Assembly (NCBI GenBank): GCA_965223665.1
Contig: OZ245011.1
Coordinates: forward strand, 4,180,044-4,244,043
Direction: 5' to 3'
Origin: Nitrospinaceae bacterium
Lineage (GTDB): Bacteria; Nitrospinota; Nitrospinia; Nitrospinales; Nitrospinaceae
DNA: 64,000 bases
Numbering within the stretch: the stretch's first letter is position 1; each line of letters begins with the position of its first letter. Positions 35,743-53,360 of the stretch are shown here, piece by piece. The position numbers and the translations under genes are program-made. The notes beneath the pieces are model-generated. The model was not told the origin of the DNA. It ran no database searches and worked only from the letters and a program-made list of their open reading frames with translations.

Positions 35743-38700
35743 ATGAGGGTTGCCTGGATGCAAAGAAAATCACTTTTTTCATTTTTATATTTTTTCAGAG
35801 ATAAGAAGCCAACCGGCATATTTAGTATATCTGTATTAATTTTTTTGATCGGCTTTTGGCCCTCCTATTTATATGCGCTTCCACAAGATGGAATTGTCAA
35901 AGGCGGCTCTGTAACTATTGAACAAATAAATTCTGATCATCTTGAAATAAATCAAATCACAGATCGAGCGATTATAGATTGGACTAGCTTTGACGTTCTT
36001 TCCAATGAGCATGTGAACTTTCAACTTCCTTCCTCTAATTCAGTAAATCTAAGTCGAGTGACAGGGGGAACTCAATCTAACATTTTTGGAAAATTAACAT
36101 CAAATGGGAAATTGATGCTCATTAACCCCAATGGAATATTATTTGGACCCCATTCTCAAATTGATGTTAACAGTTTGATTGCGACGACAAATGATATTCG
36201 TAATGAGGATTTCCTAGAAGGTAATTACAGTTTTTCACTTAATAAACCCATTTTAAGATCCATAACCAACCAAGGGAGAATTACAGTAGCGGAAGGTGGG
36301 TTAGCTGCACTAGTGGCGCCGGGTGTGATTAACGAGGGAACCATTGAGGCAAGACTAGGTCAAGTGTATTTAGGATCAGGTAAAACATTCACTTTAGATT
36401 TATATGGTGATCAGTTAGTAAGTCTAGGAGTGAATTCCCAAAGTGCTGAAGATGTGTTTGGCGTAACAGGAAACCGATTATCTTCTCTAATTAATAATTC
36501 AGGAAATATTATTTCTGATGGAGGCACCGTCATCCTCGATGTTAAATCAGCAAAAGGCTTAGTGGACCAATCCATCAATATGTCAGGAATCATCCAAGCT
36601 AGAACCATAAAGGAAAATAACGGTGAAATTTATCTTTTGGGTGGAGAGGAAGGTGAAGTTGCGGTCACAGGAAAATTGGATGCGTCAGGTTATCTAGAGG
36701 GTCAAACAGGTGGGAAAGTTTATGTATTAGGGAACGAATTGAGTCTTTTCAATAATGGGACCATAGATATTTCTGGGGATTCAGGTGGAGGTTCATTATT
36801 TTTTGGAGGCGATTATCAGGGAAAGGGAGAATTGCAAAGAGCATCTGATGTTTTTGTAAGTGATGGGGCAAATATTTTTGCTGACGCTGTAAATTTTGGG
36901 GATGGTGGGCGAACCATATTTTGGGCTGACAGAAGAAATCGTTTTTATGGAAGAGTTAGAAATAGAGGAGGATTGTTTAGTGGTTCAGGAGGATTTGTAG
37001 AAATTTCCGGACGAGAGGAATTGTATTTTGATGGCTCGGTAGATACTTCAGCGTCAAATGGAAAAGTTGGAACTTTATTGTTAGACCCGGGAGATATTGA
37101 AATTGTAAATGGATCAGGATCACCTGATGATGGTGAAGCCGCAGATGGCAATGCGTCTGTTTCATCAAGTGGAGCGATTTCGTTTTCTATTTCAGAAAAC
37201 CAATTAGAATCACTTTCCTCAAATACAAATATTCATCTTTTTGCAAGAAATAATATTTTTCTTCGCAACTTGTCAGACAATAATTTGGAATTAAAACAAA
37301 CTGCGGGACAATCTGTTCGATTAACAGCTGAAACCGGAAATATCCAATTTAGTGACACCAATGACCAAATTAGTACAAATGGTGGCAGTGTGACCCTTCA
37401 AGCTGGAGAGGATATGATCCTAGGAAAACTCAATGTGGGTGGGGGAAATGTAACATTGTTAGGAAAAGAAGGAGGAGCTATTAGCTTGGGGACTGGATCC
37501 ACAGGATTAAAGTTAAGTAATGAGGAATTATCCAAAATAACAGCAAATAATTTGGTCATTGGAGGTAATATTGTTGGAGAGAGAGCAGCTAAAATAGAGG
37601 TGCAAGGAGTCACTGGAATAAATAATATTACCAATCAATTAACACTAAACTCTCTAAGTGAAATTAGTACGATAGGTGGAGCCCCACTCGGAAAAATACA
37701 TTTCAAAAATACAGCTTCTACTATTGGAACAGGATTATTTTTAAACTCTAACCTAGAGACAAGGATAGACTCTAACCTTACAACTTTTGGCAATTTATCT
37801 ACGGGAGCAACATCACCTCTTGTATTGGGAAATAATTTAACTATTTCTTCTACTAACGGTAAGTTGACTTTAGGATCAATTTCTAATTCTTCTGCGGGAT
37901 TATCCTTATTGGCAGCAAATGGAATTACGTTAAATGAAAAGCTTACTACTGCAGGAACTACCATTCTAAATGCAGATTTGGATAACAATGGATTCGGAAT
38001 ATTTTCCCAAGCATCTGGAAAATCTTTAATTACAGGTAATGGTTCTTTATCGATAATAGCAGGGTCTTTAAATTTAAACGGTTCATTAAATAGCGGGACT
38101 GGTTTAACAACATTCATTGCTTCAAATGGAAAAAGCATAGGTTTGGGATTGGCGAGTGGTGATCTATCTCTAGACTCAACTCTCTTGTCTTCTCTGACTT
38201 CCGGTGGACTTGTTTTAGGAAATGGATTAGGAGCTATTCAAGTTAACGGGGCTAGTATTTCTTCAGGACTTACCTTAAATGGAAATTCAAATTCGTTCAT
38301 TGGATCAAACTCTTTGCTATCTGGGTTGGTTGTAAATGGACCAACAACAATCCACGGAGTCGACCTGATATCGACAGGAGGAATAATCGATTTTAATGGA
38401 ACTGTGACGTTAAACTCAAGTCCTGCGCAAATTCATAGTAATAATCAAAATATATTTTTTCAAAGTACTTTAGAGGGAAGTCAAAATTTAAATATAAATG
38501 CTGGTACAGGAATCGTTCAATTTCAAGGAAATATTGGAGACAATCTTCCATTATCAGGTCTAAATATTACAGGTCCTTCAATAATTAAAGGAATTAATAT
38601 CAGTACAGCTGGAGGAAATATAATCTTTAATGATAATGTTTCAATTGATTCAAATACGGTTCAAATAAGTACCGGGGCGGGAGGAGGAGACATTGATTTT

Positions 38701-40698
38701 CATGGGACTGTAGATGGAACTCAAAACTTAACTTTAAACTCCGGGACAGGAACGATAAATATTGATGGTAATGTTGGAACTAATACAGCACTAAAAAGTT
38801 TTACCGTAACGGGATCTACAGTTGTTAGTGGTGCTAATATTTTAACTTCTAACGGAGATATAACTTTTAACAATGCTCTCGGTTTAGATACTGGGACGGT
38901 TGAAATTAATTCAGGTACAGGGATAGGCGATATAAATTTGGGCAATACGGTAGATGGAGCCCAAAACCTAACCTTAAACTCAGGGACAGGAACGGTGAAT
39001 ATTGATGGTAATGTTGGAACTAATACAGCACTAAAAAGTATTACCGTAACCGGATCTGCGGTCGTTAGTGGTGCAAATATTATTACTTCCAACGGTAATG
39101 TCACTTTTAATAATGATGTGACCTTAGATAACGGTCCTACGCAGGTAAATACGGGTGGCGGATTAGGTAATATCACTTATTCCCAGAATATCGATGGGAA
39201 CCAAAATTTGACTTTAAATTCTGGGAATGGGTCCATTCAAATTGGGGGGAACGTTGGAAATACTTCCACTTTGGAAAATTTAAATTTAAATGGGAACACT
39301 TCATTTAGTGGCACTTCCATAAAAACCAATAGCGGAATAACTATCAGTGGAAGTCTTGATGCTAATAACCCGACCATTTTAAATTCAGATTCTGACAGCA
39401 ATGGAACAGGTGATCTTGTGGTTTCAGGACCGATAAATTCTAAAGATTTAACTTTTATATCTAATGACATTAGTTTGGGAGATACCTTAACAAGTAGTGG
39501 AGATATTATATTTAAGGTGTCTGATGGAGGAACCATGGGATTAGGTGATGGTTCTGGAGATTGGTTGTTGGATCAAACGGAATTGAGTTTTATAAATACC
39601 AATAATTTGACAATAGGTAATTCTACTGCGGGAAACTTAACTGTCGATAAAATAGCTATTAATGGAAGTAAAATTATTCAGGATATTTCTTTGATTTCAG
39701 GAAATTCTATTTTGGTAAATAACACATTAAATTTCCCGGGAAATTTGAATGTTACTTCCGGAAATAATATTTCCGATTCAGGAGCAACTTTTATAGTGGG
39801 GGGTGACGCCACTTTTAGAACCACTGGTACAAACCAGTCTATTAATTTATCAAATGTTGGCAGTGTTTTTGGGGGTCAAATTCGATTTTTTACATTGGGC
39901 AACTCTGGAGATGTTTTAGTTAATAATTCAAACGCAATTTTTGTAGGAGATTCAATAATTGGTGGAAATTTAACAGCAACTTCTAATGGAAATATTTCCC
40001 TTAACGGGGTGGTGATAAGTTCAACGGGTAGCAATCCACTCATAAGTTTAACATCCACTAATGGCTCAGTTTTGGATGGTGGATCAAGCTTTGGTTTGGA
40101 TATTGATAATCCTAATGGAACTTTAATTGCAAGTACTTTTAATGGATTTGGAACGACAGCAGACCCACTAGAAATTAGAGTGAATAACGTAAATATAGGC
40201 AATAATAACTCGGGTCCAGTAAATATATATGAGCTAGACGGTCTGAATATTGTGGGGATTAACCAAGGTGGAATAAATGAGGATGTGTCAATATCCTATT
40301 CTGGAAATATTTCTGGTCAAGAAAATGTAATGTTGAATGGAGGTCAGTTGGTTCTAACTGACAGGTTTAATGTTAATCAAGTTTTTGGAAATACCGGTAA
40401 AACATTGAAGGGTCTGGCTCTAGAAAGGACCATAAACAATTCTAGTGAGATTGGTCAATATTTTGATTTTGGAGATTGGTATAAAGAAAATATTACTTTA
40501 AATAAAGCGGCTTTTCAAAAAAGTGCAATTGCTTTTCCCTTTGTCAGGAATGCATTTATTAAAAAATATCCTGTTTGGGTTGTTAAACGACCAGTAAGTA
40601 AAAGGAACCCCAAGACCGAATTAGCAAGGTCTTTTTCCAAAAAGAATTATAAGAAAAGAAAACTCAAACCATTTTCCTTAAGGAATAAAGTAAATTAA
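35743..40698 (+). CDS. TpsA filamentous haemagglutinin-like exoprotein
   Basis: Signal peptide then LPQDG; TPS domain (IIDWTSF, LSRVTG, NGKLMLINPNGILFG), GGFVEISG, GTLLLDP; long Gly/Asn/Ser/Thr-rich beta-helix; adjacent to tpsB. Confidence 0.92.
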   Translation: MRVAWMQRKSLFSFLYFFRDKKPTGIFSISVLIFLIGFWPSYLYALPQDGIVKGGSVTIEQINSDHLEINQITDRAIIDWTSFDVLSNEHVNFQLPSSNSVNLSRVTGGTQSNIFGKLTSNGKLMLINPNGILFGPHSQIDVNSLIATTNDIRNEDFLEGNYSFSLNKPILRSITNQGRITVAEGGLAALVAPGVINEGTIEARLGQVYLGSGKTFTLDLYGDQLVSLGVNSQSAEDVFGVTGNRLSSLINNSGNIISDGGTVILDVKSAKGLVDQSINMSGIIQARTIKENNGEIYLLGGEEGEVAVTGKLDASGYLEGQTGGKVYVLGNELSLFNNGTIDISGDSGGGSLFFGGDYQGKGELQRASDVFVSDGANIFADAVNFGDGGRTIFWADRRNRFYGRVRNRGGLFSGSGGFVEISGREELYFDGSVDTSASNGKVGTLLLDPGDIEIVNGSGSPDDGEAADGNASVSSSGAISFSISENQLESLSSNTNIHLFARNNIFLRNLSDNNLELKQTAGQSVRLTAETGNIQFSDTNDQISTNGGSVTLQAGEDMILGKLNVGGGNVTLLGKEGGAISLGTGSTGLKLSNEELSKITANNLVIGGNIVGERAAKIEVQGVTGINNITNQLTLNSLSEISTIGGAPLGKIHFKNTASTIGTGLFLNSNLETRIDSNLTTFGNLSTGATSPLVLGNNLTISSTNGKLTLGSISNSSAGLSLLAANGITLNEKLTTAGTTILNADLDNNGFGIFSQASGKSLITGNGSLSIIAGSLNLNGSLNSGTGLTTFIASNGKSIGLGLASGDLSLDSTLLSSLTSGGLVLGNGLGAIQVNGASISSGLTLNGNSNSFIGSNSLLSGLVVNGPTTIHGVDLISTGGIIDFNGTVTLNSSPAQIHSNNQNIFFQSTLEGSQNLNINAGTGIVQFQGNIGDNLPLSGLNITGPSIIKGINISTAGGNIIFNDNVSIDSNTVQISTGAGGGDIDFHGTVDGTQNLTLNSGTGTINIDGNVGTNTALKSFTVTGSTVVSGANILTSNGDITFNNALGLDTGTVEINSGTGIGDINLGNTVDGAQNLTLNSGTGTVNIDGNVGTNTALKSITVTGSAVVSGANIITSNGNVTFNNDVTLDNGPTQVNTGGGLGNITYSQNIDGNQNLTLNSGNGSIQIGGNVGNTSTLENLNLNGNTSFSGTSIKTNSGITISGSLDANNPTILNSDSDSNGTGDLVVSGPINSKDLTFISNDISLGDTLTSSGDIIFKVSDGGTMGLGDGSGDWLLDQTELSFINTNNLTIGNSTAGNLTVDKIAINGSKIIQDISLISGNSILVNNTLNFPGNLNVTSGNNISDSGATFIVGGDATFRTTGTNQSINLSNVGSVFGGQIRFFTLGNSGDVLVNNSNAIFVGDSIIGGNLTATSNGNISLNGVVISSTGSNPLISLTSTNGSVLDGGSSFGLDIDNPNGTLIASTFNGFGTTADPLEIRVNNVNIGNNNSGPVNIYELDGLNIVGINQGGINEDVSISYSGNISGQENVMLNGGQLVLTDRFNVNQVFGNTGKTLKGLALERTINNSSEIGQYFDFGDWYKENITLNKAAFQKSAIAFPFVRNAFIKKYPVWVVKRPVSKRNPKTELARSFSKKNYKKRKLKPFSLRNKVN
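38470..39300 (+). repeat. About four tandem 240-bp (80-aa) repeats inside TpsA
   Basis: attgatggtaatgttggaactaatacagcactaaaaagt occurs identically at 38761 and 39001; protein unit G.QNLTLNSG.G...I.GNVG recurs; outer bounds approximate. Confidence 0.85.
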
Positions 40699-41585: not shown

Positions 41586-43010
41586 TTAGCTGGACATCTT
41601 CGTCCAACTTTCTACTTTGCAGTTTTGCTGATTTAAAACAGGATAAATTGTAAATAATGGGGTATTGAACGGAACAAATGCAGAGTCAGTTCCTGGGCTG
41701 AGAGTTAAATGAATATTAACAAAATTAAAACTTAATCCTTCCTGCCAGGGTTCTTTCGTATTTTCGATATAAGCTTCTAATTTGTCCGCAGCATGCGAGC
41801 GAGTCATTAATCCTGATCCACCCTGCAAGCCATATTCATATAAATCAGGAGCACCTTGAATTAATACTGAAATAGTAGATGCATCAAACCATACTTTAAA
41901 ATTGGATACGATTTGAAGGAAATTCCCTAAACAACCTGTTCGCTGTAAAACTGCCTGAGGGTAAGCAAAGGCAGGGGGAATATTAGGATCATTTCCTTGA
42001 TATTTGAAATCCTCTTCTTTGACTTTGGATACTGAAAAAAACAGAAGGTTTTCATCATCCATAGAAATGTCTGTTACTTTTCCATCGTTAAAACTGCAAA
42101 GCTTATCATTTTCATAAGAGAGGGGAAAAGAATACCCCATCTTGGAATAGTAAATGCGTAAGCCAGCTTCCAACGGATCTTCAGGTTTTCGACTTATTTT
42201 TATGTCAAAGGGTAGCATGAGATGAAATGCATTGGTACGAGCATTCATAAAGGGGCCGCAAGCTCCTGGGAATTCTTTGTGAACATCTTTATTGTCTGGA
42301 GAAAACTTTCTGGGGCCACCTGAAAAATGTTGGGCCGACTTAGCTTCCTGAGTTAAAGCGTATTTTTCTTTATAATATTCAGCGGCTCTTTTTTGGGCAA
42401 CGCTCAAAATGTATTGCGGAACATCCGACTGAACAATTATTTGCTGCTTATCAATACCTTTTTGGGCAGGCTTCGGATTTAGGGCTTCGTTATAAAGATT
42501 CAGTTCTTTCTCGGTTTTTTTTGCTTCGAAGGTTAATTGTCTTGCTAACTCCGGGTTGTGGTATTGGGTTTGCCCTAATAAACTTTGAGCTTTTTTCAAT
42601 AGATCCAGTTTTGCAGAATAACGCTTGGGTTCTGCAGAAAATGATTGAACTGTTGCCATGATAAGATTGAATTGTTCTTCTGGGAGAAGTCCAAGTTCTT
42701 GGAGGTTATTTTCTTTAAAAAAAGTCCAGGCAAGAGGTCCAAAAGATTCTTCTCTTTGGATATTGAGTGTTAATAAATAATTTAAATAAGCTCGTGCGGA
42801 ATCTTCAGCGTATTTTTTTTTATCAGTGATTTTGCACATGGGTAGAACATCGGAAGAGTTTATTTCAACTAAGTCTAAACCTTGATCCTTAGCCAGGGAA
42901 AGAGCGTCTTCCAGGTCATATGTTCCTAATCTTTTACCATCGTTATCTATAAGGGCTACCCGCTCGGCAGATATATCTCCATTCACTCGCTGCGACAATT
43001 TTCTCTCCAA
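41586..43010 (-). CDS. Fusion of a translation initiation factor 3 N-terminal domain to a large uncharacterised domain
   Basis: RVNGDI.AERVALIDNDG..LG....DAL.LA..QGLDLVEI......PMCKI.D matches IF3-N; no IF3-C domain; TTG or ATT start. Confidence 0.75.
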   Translation of the reverse strand: MERKLSQRVNGDISAERVALIDNDGKRLGTYDLEDALSLAKDQGLDLVEINSSDVLPMCKITDKKKYAEDSARAYLNYLLTLNIQREESFGPLAWTFFKENNLQELGLLPEEQFNLIMATVQSFSAEPKRYSAKLDLLKKAQSLLGQTQYHNPELARQLTFEAKKTEKELNLYNEALNPKPAQKGIDKQQIIVQSDVPQYILSVAQKRAAEYYKEKYALTQEAKSAQHFSGGPRKFSPDNKDVHKEFPGACGPFMNARTNAFHLMLPFDIKISRKPEDPLEAGLRIYYSKMGYSFPLSYENDKLCSFNDGKVTDISMDDENLLFFSVSKVKEEDFKYQGNDPNIPPAFAYPQAVLQRTGCLGNFLQIVSNFKVWFDASTISVLIQGAPDLYEYGLQGGSGLMTRSHAADKLEAYIENTKEPWQEGLSFNFVNIHLTLSPGTDSAFVPFNTPLFTIYPVLNQQNCKVESWTKMSS

Positions 43011-43258
43011 AATTTTCTACATTAAAGTAAAAACTAGGCAATGGGTTTTTAAATTTTCTTTTTGGCAATTATGCATGGAAACCCCTGGTTTTCCAAGAAA
43101 ATCTTAGGATTGGTAAGGGTTTTCTTACTTTTGGTGGTGTTTAAGGAGAGAATTCAAATATATAAAATATTGAAATTGTTCACTATCTTGAAGAAATTTA
43201 TGAAGCTGTTTAAGAATTCATATGATTTCGGGATTTATAGCTAGGTCCTTAGATTGAA

Positions 43259-45283
43259 CTACTTCTCCCAAAACAGATTTTTAATATTATCATCCTCAAT
43301 TGCAGAAATTGCCATGACCAACCAAGCGGTTCCAGCAACGGAGGGGTTTTTGGAGAACTGGAACTTTAGATTTTCGGTGGCATAAGGCAAACCTCCCTCA
43401 GAATCCTGAAGATGAATCATTGATTTCAAAATTTGCTCCGCTTTGACTTTGTCGCCGATTTTTATTTGTGCCATGGCAACCCCCAGGGAACCTTCCGGCC
43501 AAATCATGGGCAACTCATTCCAGTTTTTTCCGGGATCTTCAGGAAAAAATAAGGAGTTAATTTCGGGTTCTTCATATAAAGGCAAATCAATGTAGGGTTT
43601 ATAACCAATGTATCCATTAAGGTTGACTTGGTATTTTGAGGATGATTCCAAAGCAATTTTGGCTTTTTTATTTTCTCCAATGGCCAAGAGAAACATAGCA
43701 CCCCATGAAGAGCAATCTAAAGCTTTTGCGGAATCTGGGCCATCCAATCGGTGCCCTCTATTAAGTTGACCAATCTGTTCATTCCATGATTTTTCAGATA
43801 TTGATTGTTTGAGGAGATTTGCAGAAGAATTAAATTTTTTGCTTCCGGTGAGTCGTGCTAAATCTCTAAGGAAAAAATAAATATCGATATTGTGCTCCAT
43901 GCTGGCCCATTGGATTGACCCAGGAGCAAATACTTCTTCCAGATTATTTGTTTCTACATTTTTTTTGTAAATATAAGACCCCTCGCCGCCAGTGAATAAA
44001 CCATAACGAGGATCTTTGCGGTTTGTTATTTGCCGCAATAAAATTTTGTCAGCGATTGATTGAGCAATTTTAATAAAATTTATTGCCACATGGTCCTGTT
44101 GTAGAAGACTGGGATTATCAACAAGCCTTGACTTTAAATAGTAAGTAATTGCATAACCTAACCAGGCTGAAGCCCCGCTCCGATTGATTGCCCCTCCATG
44201 GTCATTTTCATTTGGCCAGGAATTATGTGTATTGAAAGTGAACCATAGATCGCCATCCCGGGATAATACTCGAGAGGCAGCTTCTATTACTTTTTCAGCC
44301 AGAGAATATTCTCCAACCATGGAAAAGGCTATAATGGCCAATGCATTGTCATAAATCGAAGCTTTACTGAAGACATAACGATAGGCTTCGGCATCTTGTG
44401 GTACACGGTAACTGATTAATAAATTTCTTCGGTCTTGAACTGGTTCGGGAACGATGGCGTTGGGAACACTTTGGGCTTTAAGCCAATCTATAGCTTTTTG
44501 TTTGTAAGGGGACCATTGGGTGGTGCCCGAAAACTTTGCTTGTTTTATCACTTTGGGTAACTGAGGAGCAAATTTAGCTACCTGGTCCACTTTTTGAGTA
44601 TCCATTTTTAAATTAGAGAGTTCCTTTATAAAAGCAATTGCAGTTTTTTCAGCTTCCTCAATTGAGGGATCAATGCGAACAGACATTCGAAGCATGGTCA
44701 TGCCGTCCATAATGTTGTGCCTCGAATTGGGCCACATATACCAATAGAGAATTAAATGTGCGAAATTATCTTTTTTTGCTATGGCGTAGCGAACTTGAAA
44801 ATTCTCTTCCCGGATTTTTAGGGATTTATAGGACCTTTCTTCAATTTTCCATCCGTCTCCTATGTAACAAACCTCAGGAGTGTGAAATAGACTTTCATTG
44901 GTGCCATGAGCCGCAACAAAATATACGGCCTGTTCATTTTTTGGATTTTCATAAAAACGAAAATAAAGAATGTTTTTGTCATCCGTTTCAATATTCTCAC
45001 CTTTCCACTCCCCTAAGGAAAAAGGAATATTTTCCAGATTTTGCTTTTTCAAATAATCAGTATTTGCGACAAACTTACCTTCATGCGAGGTCGAAAAGTA
45101 AAAGGAGGTGTCTGAAGTGAATTTATAAACAAAATCAGAAGAAACTGGTTTCACCTTTTTATCATATTTAATTGCTTTTGAAGTTGGATTGGATTCCGAA
45201 CAACCAAAAAGAGCTACTAGGCCAAACAAACAAAAATAGATTAAAAGGGTAATGACATGTTTTTTACAAGGTAGGTTTTGCAT
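43259..45283 (-). CDS. Lipoprotein: exosortase-associated EpsI-like domain fused to a six-hairpin glycosidase-like domain
   Basis: Lipobox LFGC; IP..LGEWKG, FHTPEVCYIGDGW and LILYWY are EpsI hallmarks; C-terminal YDNALA, SMEHNID, ALDCSSW, WPEGS, SVAGTAW helical-barrel motifs. Confidence 0.75.
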   Translation of the reverse strand: MQNLPCKKHVITLLIYFCLFGLVALFGCSESNPTSKAIKYDKKVKPVSSDFVYKFTSDTSFYFSTSHEGKFVANTDYLKKQNLENIPFSLGEWKGENIETDDKNILYFRFYENPKNEQAVYFVAAHGTNESLFHTPEVCYIGDGWKIEERSYKSLKIREENFQVRYAIAKKDNFAHLILYWYMWPNSRHNIMDGMTMLRMSVRIDPSIEEAEKTAIAFIKELSNLKMDTQKVDQVAKFAPQLPKVIKQAKFSGTTQWSPYKQKAIDWLKAQSVPNAIVPEPVQDRRNLLISYRVPQDAEAYRYVFSKASIYDNALAIIAFSMVGEYSLAEKVIEAASRVLSRDGDLWFTFNTHNSWPNENDHGGAINRSGASAWLGYAITYYLKSRLVDNPSLLQQDHVAINFIKIAQSIADKILLRQITNRKDPRYGLFTGGEGSYIYKKNVETNNLEEVFAPGSIQWASMEHNIDIYFFLRDLARLTGSKKFNSSANLLKQSISEKSWNEQIGQLNRGHRLDGPDSAKALDCSSWGAMFLLAIGENKKAKIALESSSKYQVNLNGYIGYKPYIDLPLYEEPEINSLFFPEDPGKNWNELPMIWPEGSLGVAMAQIKIGDKVKAEQILKSMIHLQDSEGGLPYATENLKFQFSKNPSVAGTAWLVMAISAIEDDNIKNLFWEK

Positions 45284-46091
45284 GCGGTTGTCTCATTCCT
45301 TTTATCGTTAATAACCAAAAGATAAATAAAATTGTGAAGGTTAATATAAAAAATAATATGCTTCCCAAATCGTGCCAAAAGTCAGCCGCCACGGCTTCGC
45401 CAAAATAAATTGCCACAAAAAAGAGGGTTAAAATTCTTAATAAATTTCCGATCATCGCTATGGGGATGATCAGTGAATATAACAGGACTTTCCTTTTAGT
45501 AGAGGTATTAGTGAAGTAAACCACTGGGATCATCAATGTTAACAGTGCAATGATGGATTGAATCCCACTGGAAGGAGCTCCAATTACAAACGTCGCATTG
45601 GGAAGATATATGGTAGCTCCCTCGGTGATGATTTCGTAATTTAAAAATTGCAATATTGAGGTCGCTAAATCGGCCATAAAAAATTGAAGAAAAGCGGTAA
45701 GGTCGGAAAGAAACGGAAAAGGTACCGCTATTATTGGAAATAGAATGGCAAATCTAAGATTATGGGCGGGGATTTTATTATTAAATAAATAAGTTATCCC
45801 AAGGGCCGTAAGAAAAATTGGGATAGTTTTGAAATAATAAAAATTTAATACATAGCCAATACCATATAAAACTACACTTCCAAGAATCCAATAAATCCAC
45901 TTATTTTTTTCGGTATAGTTTTTTGTAGAATGATAAATATTATAAATGGCCATGCCAACTGAGGCAAATAAGACCATAAATCCATGTTTATAAAATGGAT
46001 GGGTAATCCAAGATTCAATCAACCATTGTGAGGGTTCGTGATATACGAATACTCCAACACAGAGAATCAGGAACGAAATGATTGCCTTCAT
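45264..46091 (-). CDS. Exosortase/archaeosortase-family membrane protein
   Basis: W...W...PFYKHG, AVPFP, LQ...A..A..IL, EG.TI.LP..TFVIGAPSSG..S, NLLRI, FWHD; about 8 TMs; next to an EpsI-domain gene. Confidence 0.88.
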   Translation of the reverse strand: MKAIISFLILCVGVFVYHEPSQWLIESWITHPFYKHGFMVLFASVGMAIYNIYHSTKNYTEKNKWIYWILGSVVLYGIGYVLNFYYFKTIPIFLTALGITYLFNNKIPAHNLRFAILFPIIAVPFPFLSDLTAFLQFFMADLATSILQFLNYEIITEGATIYLPNATFVIGAPSSGIQSIIALLTLMIPVVYFTNTSTKRKVLLYSLIIPIAMIGNLLRILTLFFVAIYFGEAVAADFWHDLGSILFFILTFTILFIFWLLTIKGMRQPHAKPTL

Positions 46092-46378
46092 ACATTGTGG
46101 GTTGGTTTTCTCTTTCTTTGTTTAGAGAAATAATAAATGCTTCCAGCAATTAAAATAAAAGCACTCCCGCCAGTAACCATATATTCAATTGGAACTTCAG
46201 AAACTGTAGGAGGTGCGTCACATTTTTTCCCACTGCATGAGTGCCAGGGTTTGTGATGCGCTTCCGCTGAGGAAAATGGGTTATTTGAGGTAGAAAAAAT
46301 GGGCAGTATTAAAAGTGCTGCATAAAAAATAATTGTGAATATCCCAGCAGACAATTTTTTTATTAAATTCATTTTCAT
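46088..46378 (-). CDS. Small secreted protein with a C-terminal sorting-signal-like tail (VPIEY-TM-basic); putative exosortase target
   Basis: AAGGAGG RBS at 46383-46389 before ATG 46378; signal peptide, short polar core, VPIEY, TM, KQRKRK; stop overlaps the exosortase start (ATGA). Confidence 0.75.
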   Translation of the reverse strand: MKMNLIKKLSAGIFTIIFYAALLILPIFSTSNNPFSSAEAHHKPWHSCSGKKCDAPPTVSEVPIEYMVTGGSAFILIAGSIYYFSKQRKRKPTHNV

Positions 46379-46392
46379 AAAACCTCCTTGAA

Positions 46393-47325
46393 CTACAATG
46401 ACCCCTTTACATTTACAACAGCCCCTACTGGGTATAACCACTGCAATAAAGGATCAATAGTCAATATTAATCCTTTTCCTTTATCATTATTAGTTTCAGG
46501 GATAGTAGTAAAAAGGTCAATATCCCAAAACTTTCCTGAAGAACCATCCCAGTCATCAATTCCTGAAATAGACTTGCCATTTACTAAATTTCCTGACCCA
46601 TTCCCAGCGCGCCCATGTCCCCCAATGAAACCTACAGAATTTAGTTCCCAATTAGAGTTAGGAATATCAAGGTTTATGGGGATATCGTAAACTTCACCTG
46701 GTTTTAATATTTGCATACCAGCCAGAATCTTCAGTGAGTTTTTAGTTTGAGCTTTTGGATTTGCAGTTATTACAATAAGTGCCCAACCTGCAAGGGTATA
46801 TGGATCTTTCCCATTAGGATTGATAGCGTGAGAGGAAAGATTCTTTACGGAATAAGTTCCGTTTTTAGAAACAAATTGGGTCACATCAGCCCAAGCCGTA
46901 TAAAGAATACCGGATGAATTTTTTTTCCATATTTTATTTGCTTGAACCAAATGCTCCAGGTTCTCTGGAGATGTAAAAGCAATTTTTTTAGCAGTTTTTG
47001 TGGGATTATTTAGTTCTCCTGCCCAAAGAAGAAACGCTTTTTTAATTGGAGATGAAACGTTTAATTCAGCCTGACTAATTTTTTTAATTTCTTTATCGAC
47101 CAGAAAGCTTTCACCTATAATCGTGAAATCAAGCCCTTTCGAAGTTTCAGAGAAAATCGTTTCAAAATCATTTATGGTTTTATTTTTTATTGATGTTAAT
47201 TCCGTTGAAAAAGAATATTGCGGATAACTAATTAATAGAAGTAGGACGATAATTTTAAAAAATAATTTAAATGTGTTTTGTGGAAAAAAAAAGTGGTCTT
47301 GTTCTATCCAATAAAAATTTATCAT
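46393..47325 (-). CDS. Secreted beta-rich protein, DUF3344-like
   Basis: Signal peptide; IKKAFLLWAG, ADVTQFV...GTYSV.N, AGWALIVI and FWDID motifs recall DUF3344-type surface domains. Confidence 0.55.
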   Translation of the reverse strand: MINFYWIEQDHFFFPQNTFKLFFKIIVLLLLISYPQYSFSTELTSIKNKTINDFETIFSETSKGLDFTIIGESFLVDKEIKKISQAELNVSSPIKKAFLLWAGELNNPTKTAKKIAFTSPENLEHLVQANKIWKKNSSGILYTAWADVTQFVSKNGTYSVKNLSSHAINPNGKDPYTLAGWALIVITANPKAQTKNSLKILAGMQILKPGEVYDIPINLDIPNSNWELNSVGFIGGHGRAGNGSGNLVNGKSISGIDDWDGSSGKFWDIDLFTTIPETNNDKGKGLILTIDPLLQWLYPVGAVVNVKGSL

Positions 47326-49274
47326 CAGAATCTCAATGTAATATAGGTTTGAATATTTTTAGTAATGTCTTCATCATTCCCGGTTTCAAATCCAAGTCGA
47401 GCATCAATGGTCCATGAAATACAATCGGTGATATTCCAAGTAACAAATGCTGTGAATAGTTGCTCTATTGCATCGTCCAAAGAGTTATGGGTGATGATGT
47501 AATCAATTTCGTAGTTAAATATTTTTTTAAATTCGTCTTGAAGGTTGAATATGAAGCTATGTTCAGTTTCGTCAGGGTTGGTAAGATAATTTAGTTGGTA
47601 CTCAATTTGGATTCTGTCATAAAAGGGCAAACGATACCGAGGACGGAAGATGTAGTTTTGCCTTAATCCTGTCCCGTTTGAAAAATCATTTAACGCGACA
47701 ACGGCCAAAATGGAAAAGAAAGGATCGAAGTCCACATCGTAAGAGGCCAAGTAAGTATTGATTGATTCGATTTTTGCATTTCCAGAAGTGATATCTACAA
47801 AGAGGTCACGTGAAAAGGAAGTATTGAATAAATGGTTTTTATATTCTTTGGATAAAAGAAAATATCCCGCGTGCTCAGTCTGAGCTTTAAGTAAATTGAA
47901 AGAATTATTATCTTCATTTGTGTATCTAAATAAATCATATCGAAATCGGATTTTAAATTGTTCTGGAAGCTTTTGCTCTAAGCCAAAAGACCCTGTATTG
48001 GCGTTTACGTTGAAATCGATTAAATTATTAACTATATCTAATTGCTTTTGCTTTACACGTTGTAACCGTAGTTGGAATTTTGTGGTTGCGGATAGTCTTT
48101 GATAATAATCAAGTGTGTGACGTAAATCTCTAAAAATAATATTAAGGTTTTTGGTTTTTGGGATTTGATCTCTAAATTCGAAAAAGTTGAATCTGGTTAT
48201 TAACATTGGAGCCATGGCTCTTTTTAAACGTTCCATGGCTTGTTTAGCGTCTATATTGTTTGGATCAACATTCAGCGCTTTTAAATATTGTTCTTCTGCA
48301 AGATCCCATTGATCGTTAAAAAAATACAAGTTTCCCAATCCCACCAAAGCATCCACATTGTTGGGAGCAATTTCTAAAGCTTTCTTGAATAATTTTAGAG
48401 ATTCTTCTAATTTACTTTGCCAACTGTAAACCCTACCCAAAGCAATGTAGGACGAAATGTCTCCTTGGGCCAAGGCAACCGATTTTTGTAATTCGGTGAC
48501 GGCATCGTCTAACCTGGCCGTCCAACTGTAAAGAGTTCCCAGCATTGCCCGTACATCTTGTCTTTCGGGATCAATTTCTCTTGCCTTTTCAAGGTATTTA
48601 ATAGCATTCTCATGATCTCCTTGGTGGCTTTGGAGGATTCCAATTCCCATATAGGCTTCTACGTTTTTTGGGTCTTGTTCCAGTATTTCTTGGTAAAGCG
48701 CAATTCCATCTTTTGGATTTTTCATCCACTTATATGTGGTGGCTAATGCTTTTAAAGCTTCTATATTATTAGGATAAATTTTGAGGAGTTTTTTAAAGTA
48801 GATTACACTTTGGTCAAACTTTTCTTGCCAGGCTGTAACCTGTCCTAAAAGAAAAAGTAAATCAAATCGCTCTGGGTAAACCTCGTGTAAAGCTTTTAAT
48901 CCTTTTTCTGCCTCAGCATGATTTCCATCCCAAGCACTTAGGCGTAAAAGACCAATCTCTCCGTCGGGAAGGTCCGGTCGTAATTCTTTAATTTTTTTAT
49001 AAGTGGTGCGAGAAGCTTCAAACTTTTTTTGCCAACTTAAAACCTGAGCTAATCCCATCCAAGCTTCAATATCTTTTTCGTTAGCCTCAATAAGTTGTCT
49101 ATAAAGAGCTTCAGCTTCACTATAGTTTCCCTGCCAGCTTGTTTGGCGAGCTTGATTATAAATTGCGTCACGGTCTAACGCATAAACTCCATATACGAAT
49201 AAGCTTGGTGATAGAAGCAATGATAGAAGAAAAAAGGAAAAAATCTTTCTTAGGCTATATAAAGAAATTTTCAA
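47325..49274 (-). CDS. TPR-repeat protein with C-terminal outer-membrane beta-barrel (architecture like PgaA/YaiO/BcsC)
   Basis: Start moved to TTG 49274 (AGGAG RBS); about ten TPRs with recurring 'SW' (LAQVLSWQ, LGRVYSWQ); C-terminal amphipathic strands ending YITLRF. Confidence 0.75.
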   Translation of the reverse strand: MKISLYSLRKIFSFFLLSLLLSPSLFVYGVYALDRDAIYNQARQTSWQGNYSEAEALYRQLIEANEKDIEAWMGLAQVLSWQKKFEASRTTYKKIKELRPDLPDGEIGLLRLSAWDGNHAEAEKGLKALHEVYPERFDLLFLLGQVTAWQEKFDQSVIYFKKLLKIYPNNIEALKALATTYKWMKNPKDGIALYQEILEQDPKNVEAYMGIGILQSHQGDHENAIKYLEKAREIDPERQDVRAMLGTLYSWTARLDDAVTELQKSVALAQGDISSYIALGRVYSWQSKLEESLKLFKKALEIAPNNVDALVGLGNLYFFNDQWDLAEEQYLKALNVDPNNIDAKQAMERLKRAMAPMLITRFNFFEFRDQIPKTKNLNIIFRDLRHTLDYYQRLSATTKFQLRLQRVKQKQLDIVNNLIDFNVNANTGSFGLEQKLPEQFKIRFRYDLFRYTNEDNNSFNLLKAQTEHAGYFLLSKEYKNHLFNTSFSRDLFVDITSGNAKIESINTYLASYDVDFDPFFSILAVVALNDFSNGTGLRQNYIFRPRYRLPFYDRIQIEYQLNYLTNPDETEHSFIFNLQDEFKKIFNYEIDYIITHNSLDDAIEQLFTAFVTWNITDCISWTIDARLGFETGNDEDITKNIQTYITLRF

Positions 49275-49275
49275 A

Positions 49276-51216
49276 TTAATTCTCCTGTCGCTCCAGCCAT
49301 GGACGGTAACTTTCATAGGAATGAATGACAATTCCATAAAAACTTGAATATTTTTGTAACTCAAACCTTATGTGCTGGAGGACTTTTCTTAAATCTTTTG
49401 GTTCCAATTTATCAAAAGTTATTTTGCTTGAGGGAACGTTAACCACGCTTATTTGTTTTAAGATCTGAGAATCACTTTTGGGAAGATTCACTTTTGGAGG
49501 AATCCAACTCACTTGGACATGTTGATCATCAATAGTTTCTAAAATTATTTGCGAACCTTTACCTCTTCCATTTTGGGTGAATTCAAAGATTGTTTCATTG
49601 GGTAAAGGAACTGTTTCAAGACCAATAAATACTTTTTTACCTTTTTTCTCAGCATATCGTAACTCATCACTGCCGTGGGCAATGACACCATCGGCTCCAT
49701 ATGCAACGGTTCGGTAATCCATGATTCCAATGTTATCGACGATATCAATTATATGCTCACTGACTGGTCGCCCCCCCACTGCTGCAGTTGGTTCATAATA
49801 AATATTACGGCTGTCAAACCAAAAAGGAATATCAACACCCAAAACCAGGTTGGAATTTTTTGTAAGTATTTTGGATTTTTCAAGAAGTTCTAAATACTCC
49901 TTGAGTTTGTTTTCTTTGTTTACTCCAACAAAGGATGGTAATAAGTAAGGTTCAATGTCAAATCTGATTCCATAAAATCGCTCTGAATCATTTCCTCTCT
50001 CATTATATTGAGCGATCCTTTCAATAAGAGCCAATACACGTCCGTGCCATTCTCTTAAAGCAAAACGCGGATCTCCGTCTAAAGCATGTGTCTTAATATT
50101 GTTTTTGTGAAGACGCGAGATGAAGGAACGCATGTTTTTAGAATCCCAGTCTATTTCCCATTTATTTTGGTTTTTTTGTGCTTCATAGGGGATTTGGACG
50201 AATAAATCGGTTATTTTCTCTTTTTGACAAAAATCTAAAAGTTGATTGCTTTCCTTTTCGCTATTTAGAATTTTATTTGTTTCCCATAGCCACATTGCTT
50301 TTCGTATGGGGCGGTCCACTTTAAGTGTAATGGGGGGACTGGGGATAGAAATGTCTCTTTCTTGGGAAAAGGCTAGATCCTTTATCAGTATAGTGCTCTC
50401 GCCTTCACCTTTAACTTGAAAGACAACACTTGCAAGTTCTTTGCGATTTAATTTTTTGGGAAGTTTTGATAGAGGAACCCAAACTTGTTGCCATTTTTTT
50501 TGAATAGCTCCCTCTGGAATAAATGATTCAATATTCTCAATTAAAAGTGAATCTTCTTTTTTCTCCCAGATACGATCTGCCATTCGTAATTGAATTTGTT
50601 CTTTTCCTTTGATTCCATAAATAGAGAATGTCAAGAAGGAAAAAGGAGAGGTATCGAAGTATTTTCTTTGGCTAGGAGGAGATTTGAAATCAAACAAGTG
50701 AATCCAAAATCCAGAAAAACCAGGTTTCTTATTCTTATAAGTGAATGCTAAGCCAGGAGTTCCATCAGGTGATTTTTCAATTGAAACATTAGATTTGGAA
50801 GGAACCCTAGCAAATCCATTAAAATATCCTCCAAGTTTGTTTACATTCCCTTGATTAAATTGGTCAACAATATAAAAGTTATTGCTGAACGAAGGAGTTT
50901 TTCCTCGAGGACCGGCGGGATCCTTTAAGATGGGCTTTGATTTTCCAATATCATAAATTATTATGGATTCCTTTCCCTGAGCGTGAAGCAGGCCCATTCT
51001 GACATACCCTATTTCTGAGGAGTGACTCAGTCCCCAGTCAGAAAGGAGAATTTTTTTGTTAGGATAAGTTTGCCCGATAGCCTGGGAAGAGAAAACTCCC
51101 AAAATAATGGTGCAAATAATTAGGAATTCTACAAAATAGAAAAATTTGAGTTTGAAAGATAAAATTGGGAAGGATACGTCCCCTTTTTTTGGATTCATAT
51201 GTATAAATGTTTCCAA
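49276..51216 (-). CDS. Secreted protein: carbohydrate-binding-like beta-sandwich plus glycoside-hydrolase-like TIM barrel
   Basis: Signal/TM segment; DQFNQG..NKLGG, FSGFWIHL, WQQVWVPLS (CBM-like); AMWLWE, HALDGDP, GIRFDIEPYLL, DIPFWFD, IMDYR, IGLET, IHSY (TIM barrel). Start uncertain. Confidence 0.6.
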   Translation of the reverse strand: METFIHMNPKKGDVSFPILSFKLKFFYFVEFLIICTIILGVFSSQAIGQTYPNKKILLSDWGLSHSSEIGYVRMGLLHAQGKESIIIYDIGKSKPILKDPAGPRGKTPSFSNNFYIVDQFNQGNVNKLGGYFNGFARVPSKSNVSIEKSPDGTPGLAFTYKNKKPGFSGFWIHLFDFKSPPSQRKYFDTSPFSFLTFSIYGIKGKEQIQLRMADRIWEKKEDSLLIENIESFIPEGAIQKKWQQVWVPLSKLPKKLNRKELASVVFQVKGEGESTILIKDLAFSQERDISIPSPPITLKVDRPIRKAMWLWETNKILNSEKESNQLLDFCQKEKITDLFVQIPYEAQKNQNKWEIDWDSKNMRSFISRLHKNNIKTHALDGDPRFALREWHGRVLALIERIAQYNERGNDSERFYGIRFDIEPYLLPSFVGVNKENKLKEYLELLEKSKILTKNSNLVLGVDIPFWFDSRNIYYEPTAAVGGRPVSEHIIDIVDNIGIMDYRTVAYGADGVIAHGSDELRYAEKKGKKVFIGLETVPLPNETIFEFTQNGRGKGSQIILETIDDQHVQVSWIPPKVNLPKSDSQILKQISVVNVPSSKITFDKLEPKDLRKVLQHIRFELQKYSSFYGIVIHSYESYRPWLERQEN

Positions 51217-51366
51217 AAAAATTGGAAAGGATATTTAAAGTTTTTGTTTAGTAATTAGTTGATTTAAAGCTTTGATTTTAAAGTGATTACTATTCCAGTG
51301 TATTGGGGAGGGGATATTTTGTCAATTGGATAGTTATTTCAATTTAAGAAAAGGGATTTCATAATT

Positions 51367-51765
51367 TTATGTGTTTTCATCGGATTCTAGGCTGGGTATC
51401 AGTTCTTGGATTTTTTCTTGAAATTGGGTTCCAGAGAATGGTTTTAAAAGGTAGCCATCTATCCCGGCTTCCTGGGCCGTTTGTATTTTCTCGGATCGTG
51501 CTTCTCCGGTAAGTAATAAAAAAAGTAAATTTCTCAACTTTTCGTCTTTACGTATGGACTTAATTAACTCAAGGCCGGATAAGCCAGGTAATTGCCAATC
51601 CGCAATTACCAGGTCAAAGGATTCAGATTGTAATTTCGATAATGCTAGGGCACCATCTTCAGCGGTATCTAAATTAGTTAATTCTAATTGCTTTAATTTC
51701 CTTACCACTAACTCTAAAGAAGGCGGGTCATCATCTACTACAAGAATTTTTATGTTTGAAATCAT
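51367..51765 (-). CDS. Single-domain CheY-like response regulator
   Basis: ILVVDDD, IADWQLPGLSGLEL, LLTG, YLLKPF. Confidence 0.92.
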   Translation of the reverse strand: MISNIKILVVDDDPPSLELVVRKLKQLELTNLDTAEDGALALSKLQSESFDLVIADWQLPGLSGLELIKSIRKDEKLRNLLFLLLTGEARSEKIQTAQEAGIDGYLLKPFSGTQFQEKIQELIPSLESDENT

Positions 51766-51786
51766 TTTAAAGTAAGTAAGGTTTGA

Positions 51787-53241
51787 TTAAGGTTTGTAAC
51801 CCTTTACTTTTTCCAGTTCTGCATTTTTCCAGTTGGAACCATCTAGTTTAGTTCCAGTAAGGTTTGTGAAAAAAAGCTTTGCTCCCTCCAGGTTAACGTT
51901 AGTAAGGTTGGAGTGAGATAGATCAGCCTCATCAAGAGAAGTTCTATGTAAATCCGAATTTTCTAAGTTGCAATACGTCATATTGGATTGCTTCAACTTT
52001 GCCCCTCCAAAATCTGCCATTTGTAAATTAGCGCCCTTAAAGTTTGCTCCTATTAGGTTGGCACCAGTTAAAATAGAATTCACCATAGAGGTCTTTTTGA
52101 AAATAGATTCTTCGGCATGAGATCTACTTAGATCAGAGTTATCTAAAACCGCTTCTGAAAAGTCTGCGCCCTCTAAATTAGCATCACTAAGGTCTACAGC
52201 TATAAGCTTTGCTTTAACAAGTTTAGCACGGCTAAAGTCTGCTCCTCGTAAGTAAGCATTTTTTAAATTAGCTTCGTTTAATTTTATTCGGTTTAAATGT
52301 GCTCCATCAAGGTTAACTTTAACCAGATTCGCTCCATTCAAATCCGCGATGTCCAAAGAGGACTCTCTTAAATTAGAGTTTTCCAAGTCAGCCCGTCGAA
52401 GGATAGAACCATTTAAACGAGCGCGGGTCATATCACAATCGATTATTTTTGCTTCAGTGAGATCGGCGCCGGTTAAGTCAACCCGCAAAAGTTTGGCTTT
52501 GATAAATTTAGCACCAAATAGGCGAGAACCCTTTATCTCAGCCCGTGTTAAGTTTGTTTCAGAAAAATTTGATTCATAAAATACAGCCACACTAAGTTTT
52601 GAATCCGAAAGATCGGCCTGTGTTAAGTTTGCACCCTTAAAGTTAGCCCGAGATAAATCAGAACCTTTAATTTGAGCTTTATTCAGGTCTGCCCTTAGAA
52701 AGTTTGCTCTGTTGAGACGACTTTCATTTAAATTGACTTCGTTTAGATTTGCCTCTTGAAGATCAGCTTTGCGTAGGTCTGATCTTTCTAAAAGAGCCTT
52801 ATTTAAATTAGCGCCGATTAATTTAGTTTCATTTAATATGCTATCAGTAAAATTGGCTTCACTAAGATCCGCCTGGCTTAGATCGGCCTCAGATAAATCT
52901 GAATCAGAAAGATCAGTCCCAACCAATTTAGAACTACTTATATTAGCGCCATAAAAATTTAAGTTAGATAAATCTAATCCCGAAAGATCTAAATTTTTGA
53001 GAGATGGAGTTTCATCTTCATCTTCTTCATTAGCGGAAGATTCTTCATCTTCGGCAGAATCAGAAGCATCCGGATCATCGATCATTTCTTCCTCAGAAGA
53101 GTCCTTTATTTCCTCAGATTGTTCCTCTTCTTCATTGTCATCCTCTACATCTTCATATAATGCTTCTTCCTCTTCGCGGTCACGCAACTCTTTCAACTGG
53201 TTTAAAATTTCTTCAACTTCTTCTCGTGTAAGATCAGGCAT
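51787..53241 (-). CDS. Long pentapeptide-repeat protein with an acidic N-terminal insert
   Basis: About 400 aa of continuous A(D/N)Lxx repeats preceded by an Asp/Glu-rich stretch. Confidence 0.93.
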   Translation of the reverse strand: MPDLTREEVEEILNQLKELRDREEEEALYEDVEDDNEEEEQSEEIKDSSEEEMIDDPDASDSAEDEESSANEEDEDETPSLKNLDLSGLDLSNLNFYGANISSSKLVGTDLSDSDLSEADLSQADLSEANFTDSILNETKLIGANLNKALLERSDLRKADLQEANLNEVNLNESRLNRANFLRADLNKAQIKGSDLSRANFKGANLTQADLSDSKLSVAVFYESNFSETNLTRAEIKGSRLFGAKFIKAKLLRVDLTGADLTEAKIIDCDMTRARLNGSILRRADLENSNLRESSLDIADLNGANLVKVNLDGAHLNRIKLNEANLKNAYLRGADFSRAKLVKAKLIAVDLSDANLEGADFSEAVLDNSDLSRSHAEESIFKKTSMVNSILTGANLIGANFKGANLQMADFGGAKLKQSNMTYCNLENSDLHRTSLDEADLSHSNLTNVNLEGAKLFFTNLTGTKLDGSNWKNAELEKVKGYKP

Positions 53242-53360
53242 AATTTTAAAATTTTCTTTCCAAAAAGATTGGAAAATTGTTATTTAAATTGATTTGGGTC
53301 TAGCGGAACCTCATAAAATAACTTACAAACCTCAATAACGCAAGGCCGAAAAATCTATTC

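Follow-up and report, generated by a model that had tools for sequence, protein, structure and literature searches.

A Nitrospinota clade of exosortases with serine at the catalytic cysteine position and an adjacent small candidate substrate

A serine-type exosortase in a Nitrospinaceae genome

We have analyzed a stretch of 64,000 nucleotides from the genome of a Nitrospinaceae bacterium (GenBank assembly GCA_965223665.1, contig OZ245011.1, positions 4,180,044 to 4,244,043 of the forward strand). This whole stretch is referred to here as the window, and positions are counted from its first letter. It harbors a gene for an exosortase of 275 amino acids (aa) (45264..46091, minus strand) with a Ser at the position where the superfamily has its catalytic Cys. 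This gene occupies the fifth place in a conserved, tightly packed block of six minus-strand genes. Directly upstream lies the gene of a small pre-protein, presumed to be the substrate of the exosortase, and directly downstream a gene encoding a lipoprotein-like protein with an EpsI domain. The three genes overlap, the stop codon of the small gene and the start of the exosortase gene sharing an ATGA, and the end of the exosortase gene running 20 bases into the EpsI gene.

The translation of the exosortase gene includes NATFVIGAPSSGIQSIIALL, and its reading frame is open over the full length. Positions 45570..45572 read GGA on the plus strand, and thus codon 174 is TCC on the minus strand and encodes Ser, giving P-S-S-G in place of P-C-S-G; the neighboring codons are CCT (Pro173) and AGT (Ser175). 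Codons 216–219 (45435..45446, minus strand) encode N-L-L-R in the context GNLLRIL and contain the Asn and Arg that are invariant in the family, as seen in close homologues and in the alignment A2 described below. Codon 240 (45372..45374, minus strand) encodes the His of F-W-H-D in the context DFWHD, which homologue alignments identify as the conserved His of the family. In a BLASTP comparison with the canonical exosortase of the same genome (XrtT), Ser174 falls in the Cys column of P-C-S-G, and the paired segments are GAPSSGIQS/DLPCSGARG, NLLRI/NILRI, and WHD/WHD. A preliminary description of this DNA had reported a TCC codon for Ser at the catalytic Cys position, with Arg219 and His240 intact in an otherwise undamaged reading frame, and these observations hold, as Ser174 was aligned with the Cys of P-C-S-G in three comparisons. 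Logan contigs from four public runs (two samples, one study) match positions 45000–46700 without mismatch, although they are possibly the source of the window itself and are not an independent confirmation.

The protein scored 133.8 bits against PF09721 (cut-off 25.7) and, over residues 170–261, 57.1 bits against TIGR04178 (cut-off 23), both of which place it in the exosortase/archaeosortase superfamily. The conserved Arg (N-x-x-R) and His of the superfamily are present, and Ser174 occupies the column of the conserved Cys of C-S-G. None of the cut-offs of the named subfamilies XrtA, XrtB, XrtC, XrtD, XrtN, XrtO, XrtQ, XrtT, XrtV, XrtW, CrtA, and CrtC was reached, the best subfamily scores being those for XrtV (99.9 bits against a cut-off of 313), XrtA (95.2 against 208), and EpsH (81.7 against 105.55). 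Representatives of the Ser clade described below (P0068–P0071) and their nearest Cys-type neighbors also remained below every named Xrt cut-off, with their best matches to XrtA, XrtV, and the general EpsH model. By every test except the Cys, the window protein is an exosortase, one belonging to no named Xrt subfamily.

Conservation of Ser174 and its codons

A homologue search of 90%-identity clusters yielded 66 proteins with 38–100% identity, including the window's own. All 66 contain P-S-S-G-I-(Q/R)-S, and Arg219, His240, and N216 are likewise invariant among them. At the DNA level, 22 loci were fetched (8 from species genomes, 14 from metagenome contigs; L numbers below), which together with the window make 23. 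The eight species-genome loci are all labelled Nitrospinota, Nitrospinales, Nitrospinaceae, or Nitrospina. Across the 23 loci, codon 174 is TCG in 14, TCC in five, and TCA in four, with neither AGY nor TGY codons, and 18 of the 23 (the TCG and TCA forms) are two changes away from any Cys codon. The earlier remark that the codon is one base from TGC is thus valid for the TCC of this genome and fails for those 18 loci. Synonymous variation is also found at the neighboring Pro, Gly, and Ser179 codons.

The ratio of nonsynonymous to synonymous substitution rates (dN/dS, Nei-Gojobori) of the exosortase gene is 0.10–0.19 in the six computable pairs out of eight, the two remaining pairs being one without synonymous differences and one that is saturated; these values indicate that the gene is under purifying selection. 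Because Ser occurs in all close homologues and is encoded by varying synonymous codons, an error or private mutation, as considered in the preliminary description, is refuted, and Ser174 is a real and conserved feature of these proteins. The comparison of homologous codons proposed there showed that Ser is kept with three synonymous TCN codons (no AGY was seen), in agreement with a real serine subfamily, and the TGC or TGT codons named there as the sign of an error or private mutation are absent from all 23 loci.

Phylogeny and distribution of the serine type

A HMMER search of 1.84 billion 50%-identity representatives returned 3334 proteins at E ≤ 0.001, and the best 150 of these were aligned with the query using MAFFT (151 rows). 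The catalytic column of this alignment contains Cys in 144 rows and Ser in seven, and no other residue in any of the 151. The seven Ser rows are the top scorers (the query and P0066–P0071), reaching down to 33% identity (E 1.9e-31). In a maximum-likelihood tree of 129 of these rows, from which 22 sequences outside 240–330 aa had been dropped, the seven Ser rows share one side of a branch with a Shimodaira-Hasegawa-like approximate likelihood ratio test (SH-aLRT) value of 97. This branch lies inside a group of 24 rows (support 98), the other 17 members of which are Cys-type. The simplest reading of this topology is that Cys changed to Ser once, in the common ancestor of these proteins, and Ser is ancestral to the Nitrospinota clade. 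A second, word-indexed search with a mixed alignment gave 122 proteins, 59 of them new, all Cys-type, which is not to be taken as a census of the superfamily.

Searching 120 Nitrospinota species genomes, including that of the window, with a profile of the clade (E ≤ 1e-25) gave matches in 11. Ten of these have P-S-S-G (378–427 bits, three genera), and the eleventh, at 109 bits, has A-C-S-G. The distribution of the Ser clade within Nitrospinota is thus patchy. A pattern scan for the clade motif in 185,579 species genomes led to eight confirmed loci, all in Nitrospinota, and among the species genomes searched the Ser clade is accordingly found only in this phylum.

Serine at the same position also occurs in the archaeal thaumarchaeosortases, for which the model TIGR04297 (307 positions, cut-off 250 bits) is available. 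Ammonia-oxidizing archaea were reached via a contig search with the archaeal amoA forward primer, which matched 44 stretches. In all five of the archaeal genomes chosen (L069–L073), TIGR04297 scored above its cut-off (331.7–547.4 bits), and all five proteins show W-P-S-A-G-V-H-S where the Cys would stand and retain N-x-x-R and His, the Ser codon being TCA four times and TCC once. These proteins show that a family already catalogued in archaea normally carries Ser at this position. Since this curated family also lacks the Cys, the Cys is not strictly defining for the superfamily, and the two occurrences show that the Ser state arose at least twice within it.

A small pre-protein as the likely substrate

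The gene directly upstream of the exosortase gene (46091..46378, minus strand) encodes a pre-protein of 96 aa, with the start MKMNLIKK chosen by homology with locus L001; the longest open reading frame (ORF) starts at 46441. The pre-protein consists of a signal peptide ending in A-E-A, a middle part of 15 aa (HHKPWHSCSGKKCDA), and a C-terminal sorting domain (46091..46213, minus strand) in which PPTVSEVPIEYMV is followed by a hydrophobic helix and KQRKRK. The putative substrate peptide is PPTVSELPIQYM. The cargo left after a cut at A-E-A (46214..46258, minus strand) would start with His-His-Lys-Pro-x-His and contains two Cys, and a His/Cys-rich start is also seen in the small genes of L006, L012, and L014–L018. 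Such a short His/Cys-rich peptide looks like a metal-binding motif.

A small gene with the shared C-terminal domain adjoins the exosortase gene in 19 of the 22 fetched loci, upstream in 17 and downstream in L023 and L024, and the three loci without it have fewer than 150 bases of sequence upstream of the exosortase gene. The encoded proteins follow a common plan of a signal-peptide-like N-terminus (mostly ending in A-E-A), a variable middle of 13–55 residues, and the C-terminal domain. In the latter, the signal P-P-T-V-S-E-(L/V/F)-P-(I/V)-x-Y-M-(V/I) precedes a hydrophobic helix, which is followed by a basic cluster. All three elements expected of a cognate exosortase substrate are therefore recognizable in the predicted proteins of these 19 loci and of the window. 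Among 21 aligned domains, P56, P57, E61, M67, and G71 are invariant, and T58, V59, S60, P63, and Y66 are at least 90% conserved. The mean pairwise identity is 0.53 for the sorting domain vs 0.20 for the middle part, which in other loci is either Gly-rich or strongly Lys/Arg-rich with a C-x6-C loop. In 17 of the 21 aligned substrates, a Cys lies within four residues of the presumed cleavage motif.

Such strict conservation of the signal, next to a cargo that is free to vary, suggests that the signal is read, and the exosortase would be the obvious reader. Tandem copies of the small gene occur in L002 (three) and in L003 and L010 (two each); their middle parts are very different, while the C-terminal signal is the same, and the paralogues in these three loci are extremely Lys/Arg-rich, with the C-x6-C loop just before the sorting motif. 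The tandem copies suggest a diversification of the cargo.

A hidden Markov model (HMM) of the C-terminal domain, built from 23 distinct domains and run on 39,473 six-frame ORFs of the genome, finds one ORF only, the small gene itself (77.2 bits, E 1.7e-21), the next score being 13.1 bits (E 0.17). Because the HMM finds only the small gene, we regard the system as dedicated, with one enzyme and one adjacent substrate type, and the 96-aa protein as the presumed sole substrate of the Ser-type exosortase. The pre-protein did not match the PEP-CTERM model TIGR02595 (24 positions, cut-off 16 bits) at E ≤ 1, nor did it have a credible NCBIfam match of any kind. Its C-terminal domain is thus PEP-CTERM-like in its tripartite architecture, yet constitutes an uncatalogued signal.

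Other genes of the conserved block and its surroundings

The last gene of the block (43259..45283, minus strand) encodes a lipoprotein-like protein of 674 aa with an EpsI/DUF3485 domain (approximately residues 79–183) and a C-terminal domain resembling (alpha/alpha)6 glycoside hydrolases. It scored 52.5 bits against PF11984 (cut-off 26.1) and 35.8 bits against TIGR02914, which is below the cut-off of 42.8, and its EpsI membership therefore rests on the Pfam model. Its AlphaFold2 (AF2) model has a predicted local distance difference test (pLDDT) value of 69.3 overall and is good over most of residues 460–672. Foldseek returned 295 PDB matches at E ≤ 0.001 for this model and, among the rows shown, almost all are glycosidase- or phosphorylase-like or related sugar-acting proteins, such as dextran dextrinase (9ju0, 6.8e-11), MmpH (7qsj, TM 0.72 on the target), the GH63 protein YgjK, GH15 glucoamylase, and GH100 invertase. 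The Atlas lead for this protein is likewise (alpha/alpha)6 glycosidase-like (0.82–0.89). The EpsI fusion gene directly follows the exosortase gene in 18 of the 22 loci, and the other four end less than 150 bases from the exosortase gene. The enzyme, the substrate-like gene, and the EpsI fusion are thus inherited together.

Three genes precede that of the small pre-protein. The first (49276..51216, minus strand) encodes a protein of 646 aa that starts with a hydrophobic N-terminal segment and includes a stretch weakly resembling CBM30 (PF21582, 28.7 bits, cut-off 27); its one PDB sequence match, a weak one, is to a putative GH97 protein (E 0.001), and the gene is kept at the same place in L001, L002, L003, L006, L010, and L012. 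The second (47325..49364, minus strand) encodes a 679-aa tetratricopeptide repeat (TPR) protein with many TPR matches in Pfam and 124 bits against the PrsT model TIGR02917 (cut-off 312). The resemblance of this protein to PrsT, PgaA, and BcsC is confined to the TPR part and stays below their cut-offs, and its C-terminal 291 aa matched no family in Pfam- and NCBIfam-type profile searches. The third (46393..47325, minus strand) encodes a secreted-looking protein of 310 aa, a homologue of which is found upstream in 16 of the 22 loci. This protein had no Pfam, NCBIfam, or PDB match, and the feature-level pointer of Atlas to DUF3344 (0.94) is to be read as a lead only. Searching PDB sequences with the accessory proteins produced no usable result. 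A scan of positions 42900–51800 found 21 promoter-like and eight terminator-like signals, which is not above the shuffled sequences (28.8 and 7.9, respectively).

Several features around the block were also noted. A 100-aa ORF on the plus strand (46388..46690), antisense to the end of the 310-aa gene, is seemingly conserved in many loci and is most simply the shadow of the conserved gene on the opposite strand and not a gene. Just downstream of the operon, a 474-aa protein (41586..43010, minus strand) matches the IF-3 N-terminal domain over its first 70 residues (PF05198, 64.9 bits), with the other 400 residues matching nothing, and is 93% identical in L001. Upstream of the operon (51367..54134, minus strand) lie genes for a CheY-like single-domain response regulator (132 aa), a pentapeptide-repeat protein (484 aa), and a protein of the ADP-ribosylglycohydrolase family (257 aa), the first two of which are kept at the same place in L001 only. 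Besides, a very large ORF of 1651 aa is found on the plus strand (35743..40698) within a few kb of the operon, and the portion of it that was compared is 86% identical in L001.

Active-site context and structure model

The residues surrounding Ser174 were examined in alignment A2, which contains 128 rows (105 Cys-type and 23 Ser). N216 and R219 are invariant in all 128 rows, and H240 is present in 149 of the 151 representatives of the wider alignment. Eleven positions conserved across the 105 Cys-type rows (W28, Y34, H36, G37, P124, P126, G158, G176, N216, R219, and H240) are also 91–100% conserved in the 23 Ser rows, and clade-specific residues of the Ser type are G243, W259, F93, W239, and I177. 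A relocated Cys was sought in the 66 close homologues; the most frequent Cys column is occupied in only 31 of them, and nine lack Cys altogether, so that no Cys has moved to another conserved position. The clade has an invariant Ser175, the column of which contains Ser in 134 and Thr in 11 of the 151 rows.

The AF2 model of the exosortase (pLDDT 95.1; predicted template modeling score, pTM, 0.89) is a helical bundle of ten helices with one small three-stranded sheet (residues 155–169) directly before the motif. Ser174 is modeled just before helix 177–192, with Arg219 in helix 198–230 and His240 in helix 232–264. The predicted structure is consistent with a polytopic, almost wholly helical membrane protein.

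Proposed function and alternative explanations

We consider it probable that the window protein is an active exosortase in which Ser174 replaces Cys as the nucleophile, and that it belongs to a small clade dedicated to the adjacent small protein or proteins. An active Ser enzyme is favored because the Ser is invariant, the Arg, His, and Asn are intact, the gene is under purifying selection, a candidate substrate with an invariant signal is co-inherited, and an independent archaeal family has made the same swap. In the scheme that we propose, the 96-aa pre-protein would be exported and lose its signal peptide after A-E-A, and its C-terminal helix and basic cluster would anchor it in the inner membrane, with PPTVSE-(L/V/F)-P-(I/V)-x-Y-M at the outer face. 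Ser174, activated by His240 acting as a base, could then attack a peptide bond in or next to the motif, while Arg219 and Asn216 may assist by stabilizing the transition state or holding the substrate. An oxy-ester acyl-enzyme would form and the membrane tail would be released. The intermediate might be resolved by water, yielding a free peptide of approximately 15–55 residues, or alternatively by an acceptor, which might be a glycan on which the EpsI-(alpha/alpha)6 lipoprotein and other envelope proteins act. The EpsI-glycosidase-like fusion and the envelope proteins hint at such a glycan-linked fate.

Several points weigh against this proposal. The hydroxyl of serine is less nucleophilic than a thiolate, and A2 revealed no obvious acidic residue specific to the clade as the third member of a Ser-His-Asp triad; Asp241 occurs in 91% of the Ser rows but also in 50% of the Cys rows. 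The searches for a solved structure with this fold were negative: a PDB sequence search with the exosortase (E ≤ 10) and a Foldseek search with its model (E ≤ 0.001) returned no matches, and a VIA wide structure search reached a best Z of 7.7 with generic helical bundles only. The conservation of Ser, Arg, and His would also fit recognition of the motif by binding only. Furthermore, no paper was found on the activity, substrate cleavage, or expression of any Ser-type member, nor on Ser-type exosortases or thaumarchaeosortases in general, in a literature search covering the main text of open papers. A candidate lead to serine exosortases, PMC8416519, was rejected, as its passages concern alpha-2-macroglobulin and not sortases.

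The absence of the hallmark nucleophile of the family, together with this lack of activity data, might instead point to a pseudoenzyme, a receptor, chaperone, or scaffold to which the PPTVSE-type signal would bind, with cleavage either not occurring or carried out by another protease. A cargo of 13–55 residues, too small for the usual role of anchoring a folded surface protein, would agree with this. However, pseudoenzymes usually lose several catalytic residues, while here N216, R219, H240, and G176 are all invariant, as is the Ser in place of the Cys, a residue able to act as a nucleophile. The same single replacement is seen in an independent family of archaea that retains Arg and His, and a repeated, specific Cys-to-Ser change is what conserved chemistry predicts, not loss of function. 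Besides, the conserved six-gene block contains no further protease gene. We therefore judge a binding-only protein to be rather unlikely. The preliminary description had left a serine nucleophile and a non-catalytic receptor side by side; the subfamily is real and the evidence favors an active enzyme, though the choice between the two lies beyond sequence alone.

It is also conceivable that the enzyme is active with another nucleophile, either Ser175 or a water activated by His/Arg, and that position 174 is structural only. The invariance of Ser175 in the clade and the Ser or Thr found there in most Cys-type relatives fit this idea, but the second position is Ala in all five thaumarchaeosortases (W-P-S-A-G), and the Ser175-type residue would therefore be dispensable where Ser replaces Cys. 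The restriction of position 174 to Cys or Ser throughout the 151 rows is, moreover, the pattern of a nucleophile, and the Cys at the aligned motif of ArtA (Cys173, together with Arg214 and Arg253) is reported as critical (PMC9263693). Taken together, these observations make a different nucleophile very unlikely. As for a sequencing or assembly error, or a private inactivating mutation, the single base that separates TCC from TGC would make one easy to envisage; its probability is nevertheless practically nil, given the Ser in all homologues and loci, the two steps that separate most of its codons from Cys, the intact gene under purifying selection, and the agreement of the four-run contigs, with the reservation on their origin made above.

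Implications and a speculative extension

Exosortases and archaeosortases have been called cysteine proteases or transpeptidases on the basis of a near-invariant Cys/Arg/His and one archaeal mutagenesis study. The preprint 10.1101/2023.06.07.544157 infers the Cys/Arg/His triad of the family from "nearly perfect conservation" and regards these enzymes as novel cysteine proteases, possibly transpeptidases. The Ser clade, with its tiny, adjacent, and easily synthesized substrate, provides a natural test of the nucleophile position, the acyl-enzyme, and the acceptor. It also widens the range of known exosortase systems by a sorting signal not catalogued before and by a fusion of EpsI with a glycosidase-like domain.

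Members of the superfamily with Ser are carried both by ammonia-oxidizing archaea and by nitrite-oxidizing Nitrospinota. This occurrence in two groups of nitrifiers may be a coincidence. Nitrosospira are described as lacking exosortases in PMC9239080. A joint reading, which we put forward as an outside chance, is that the Cys-to-Ser change is a repeated adaptation and that short peptides are joined via their new C-terminus to an exported glycan. If this were true, nitrogen oxides that react with thiols would threaten an exposed thiol nucleophile in both groups of nitrifiers, and in Nitrospinota a substrate Cys near the motif could trap a Cys enzyme in mixed disulfides. The products would be very short His/Cys-rich or polybasic peptides, with a His-His start in several genomes, and they would decorate an exopolymer of a kind that has not been described.

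Comparison with known exosortase systems

The system reported here is not of a new kind, as the Ser state already exists in a curated archaeal family, and it overturns nothing. We would rather describe it as the first bacterial Ser-type clade known to us, distinguished by a dedicated signal that is new and by a cargo of unusually small size, as deduced from the genes. The thaumarchaeosortases (TIGR04297) share with it the Ser after Pro (P-S-x-G), N-x-x-R, the His, and TCN codons for the Ser, and differ in their archaeal hosts, in the greater length of the proteins, and in having W-P-S-A-G-V-H-S where the Nitrospinota proteins have P-S-S-G-I-Q-S. The TIGR04297 model had no match in the whole genome of the window at E ≤ 10, nor did the family appear among the profile matches listed at E ≤ 0.01. 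Descent from thaumarchaeosortases, or gene transfer with them, was therefore rejected, since in addition the clade nests among bacterial Cys types. The shared Ser at the nucleophile position is a mechanistic resemblance and not membership.

The systems built on XrtA (TIGR03109), XrtV (NF035943), and EpsH (TIGR02602, PF09721) resemble the one in the window in many respects, including the fold family, the length (about 275 aa), and three motifs, G-x-x-S, N-x-x-R, and H. The likeness extends to a partner with an EpsI domain, a substrate with a motif, helix, and basic cluster, and a setting among envelope or glycan genes, one of which encodes a TPR protein resembling PrsT. On the other hand, the window enzyme has Ser for Cys and scores far below the cut-offs of these subfamilies. 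Its signal, PPTVSE-x-P-x-x-Y-M, differs from that of PEP-CTERM substrates, and a single tiny adjacent substrate takes the place of many large ones. The EpsI domain of the window system is, in addition, fused to an (alpha/alpha)6 glycosidase-like domain.

Dedicated exosortases with a single target, such as XrtE with VPEID-CTERM, are said to have been described by Haft, Payne and Selengut in 2012 as Cys-type enzymes. XrtE/VPEID-CTERM, as so described, shares with the window system the arrangement of one exosortase and one adjacent substrate with a private C-terminal signal, and differs from it in the Cys-type enzyme as opposed to Ser.

A further comparison is offered by the same genome, which encodes an XrtT paralogue (NF033770, 599.1 bits, cut-off 250) with P-C-S-G at G000:C1:4139563-4140330. 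This gene is located beyond the window, some 85 kb away from that of the Ser type, and the two proteins are 26% identical over the core. At the XrtT locus (G000:C1:4136724-4140330, L005), the 524-aa XrtT has an EpsI domain fused at its C-terminus, and the only PEP-CTERM match of the genome (20.4 bits, in a 746-aa open frame) lies beside it. XrtT has in common with the Ser type the superfamily and the genome, an EpsI domain, and one nearby protein, here a PEP-CTERM protein, and is distinguished by keeping P-C-S-G. Its presence shows that exosortases of the Cys and Ser types can be maintained together in this organism.

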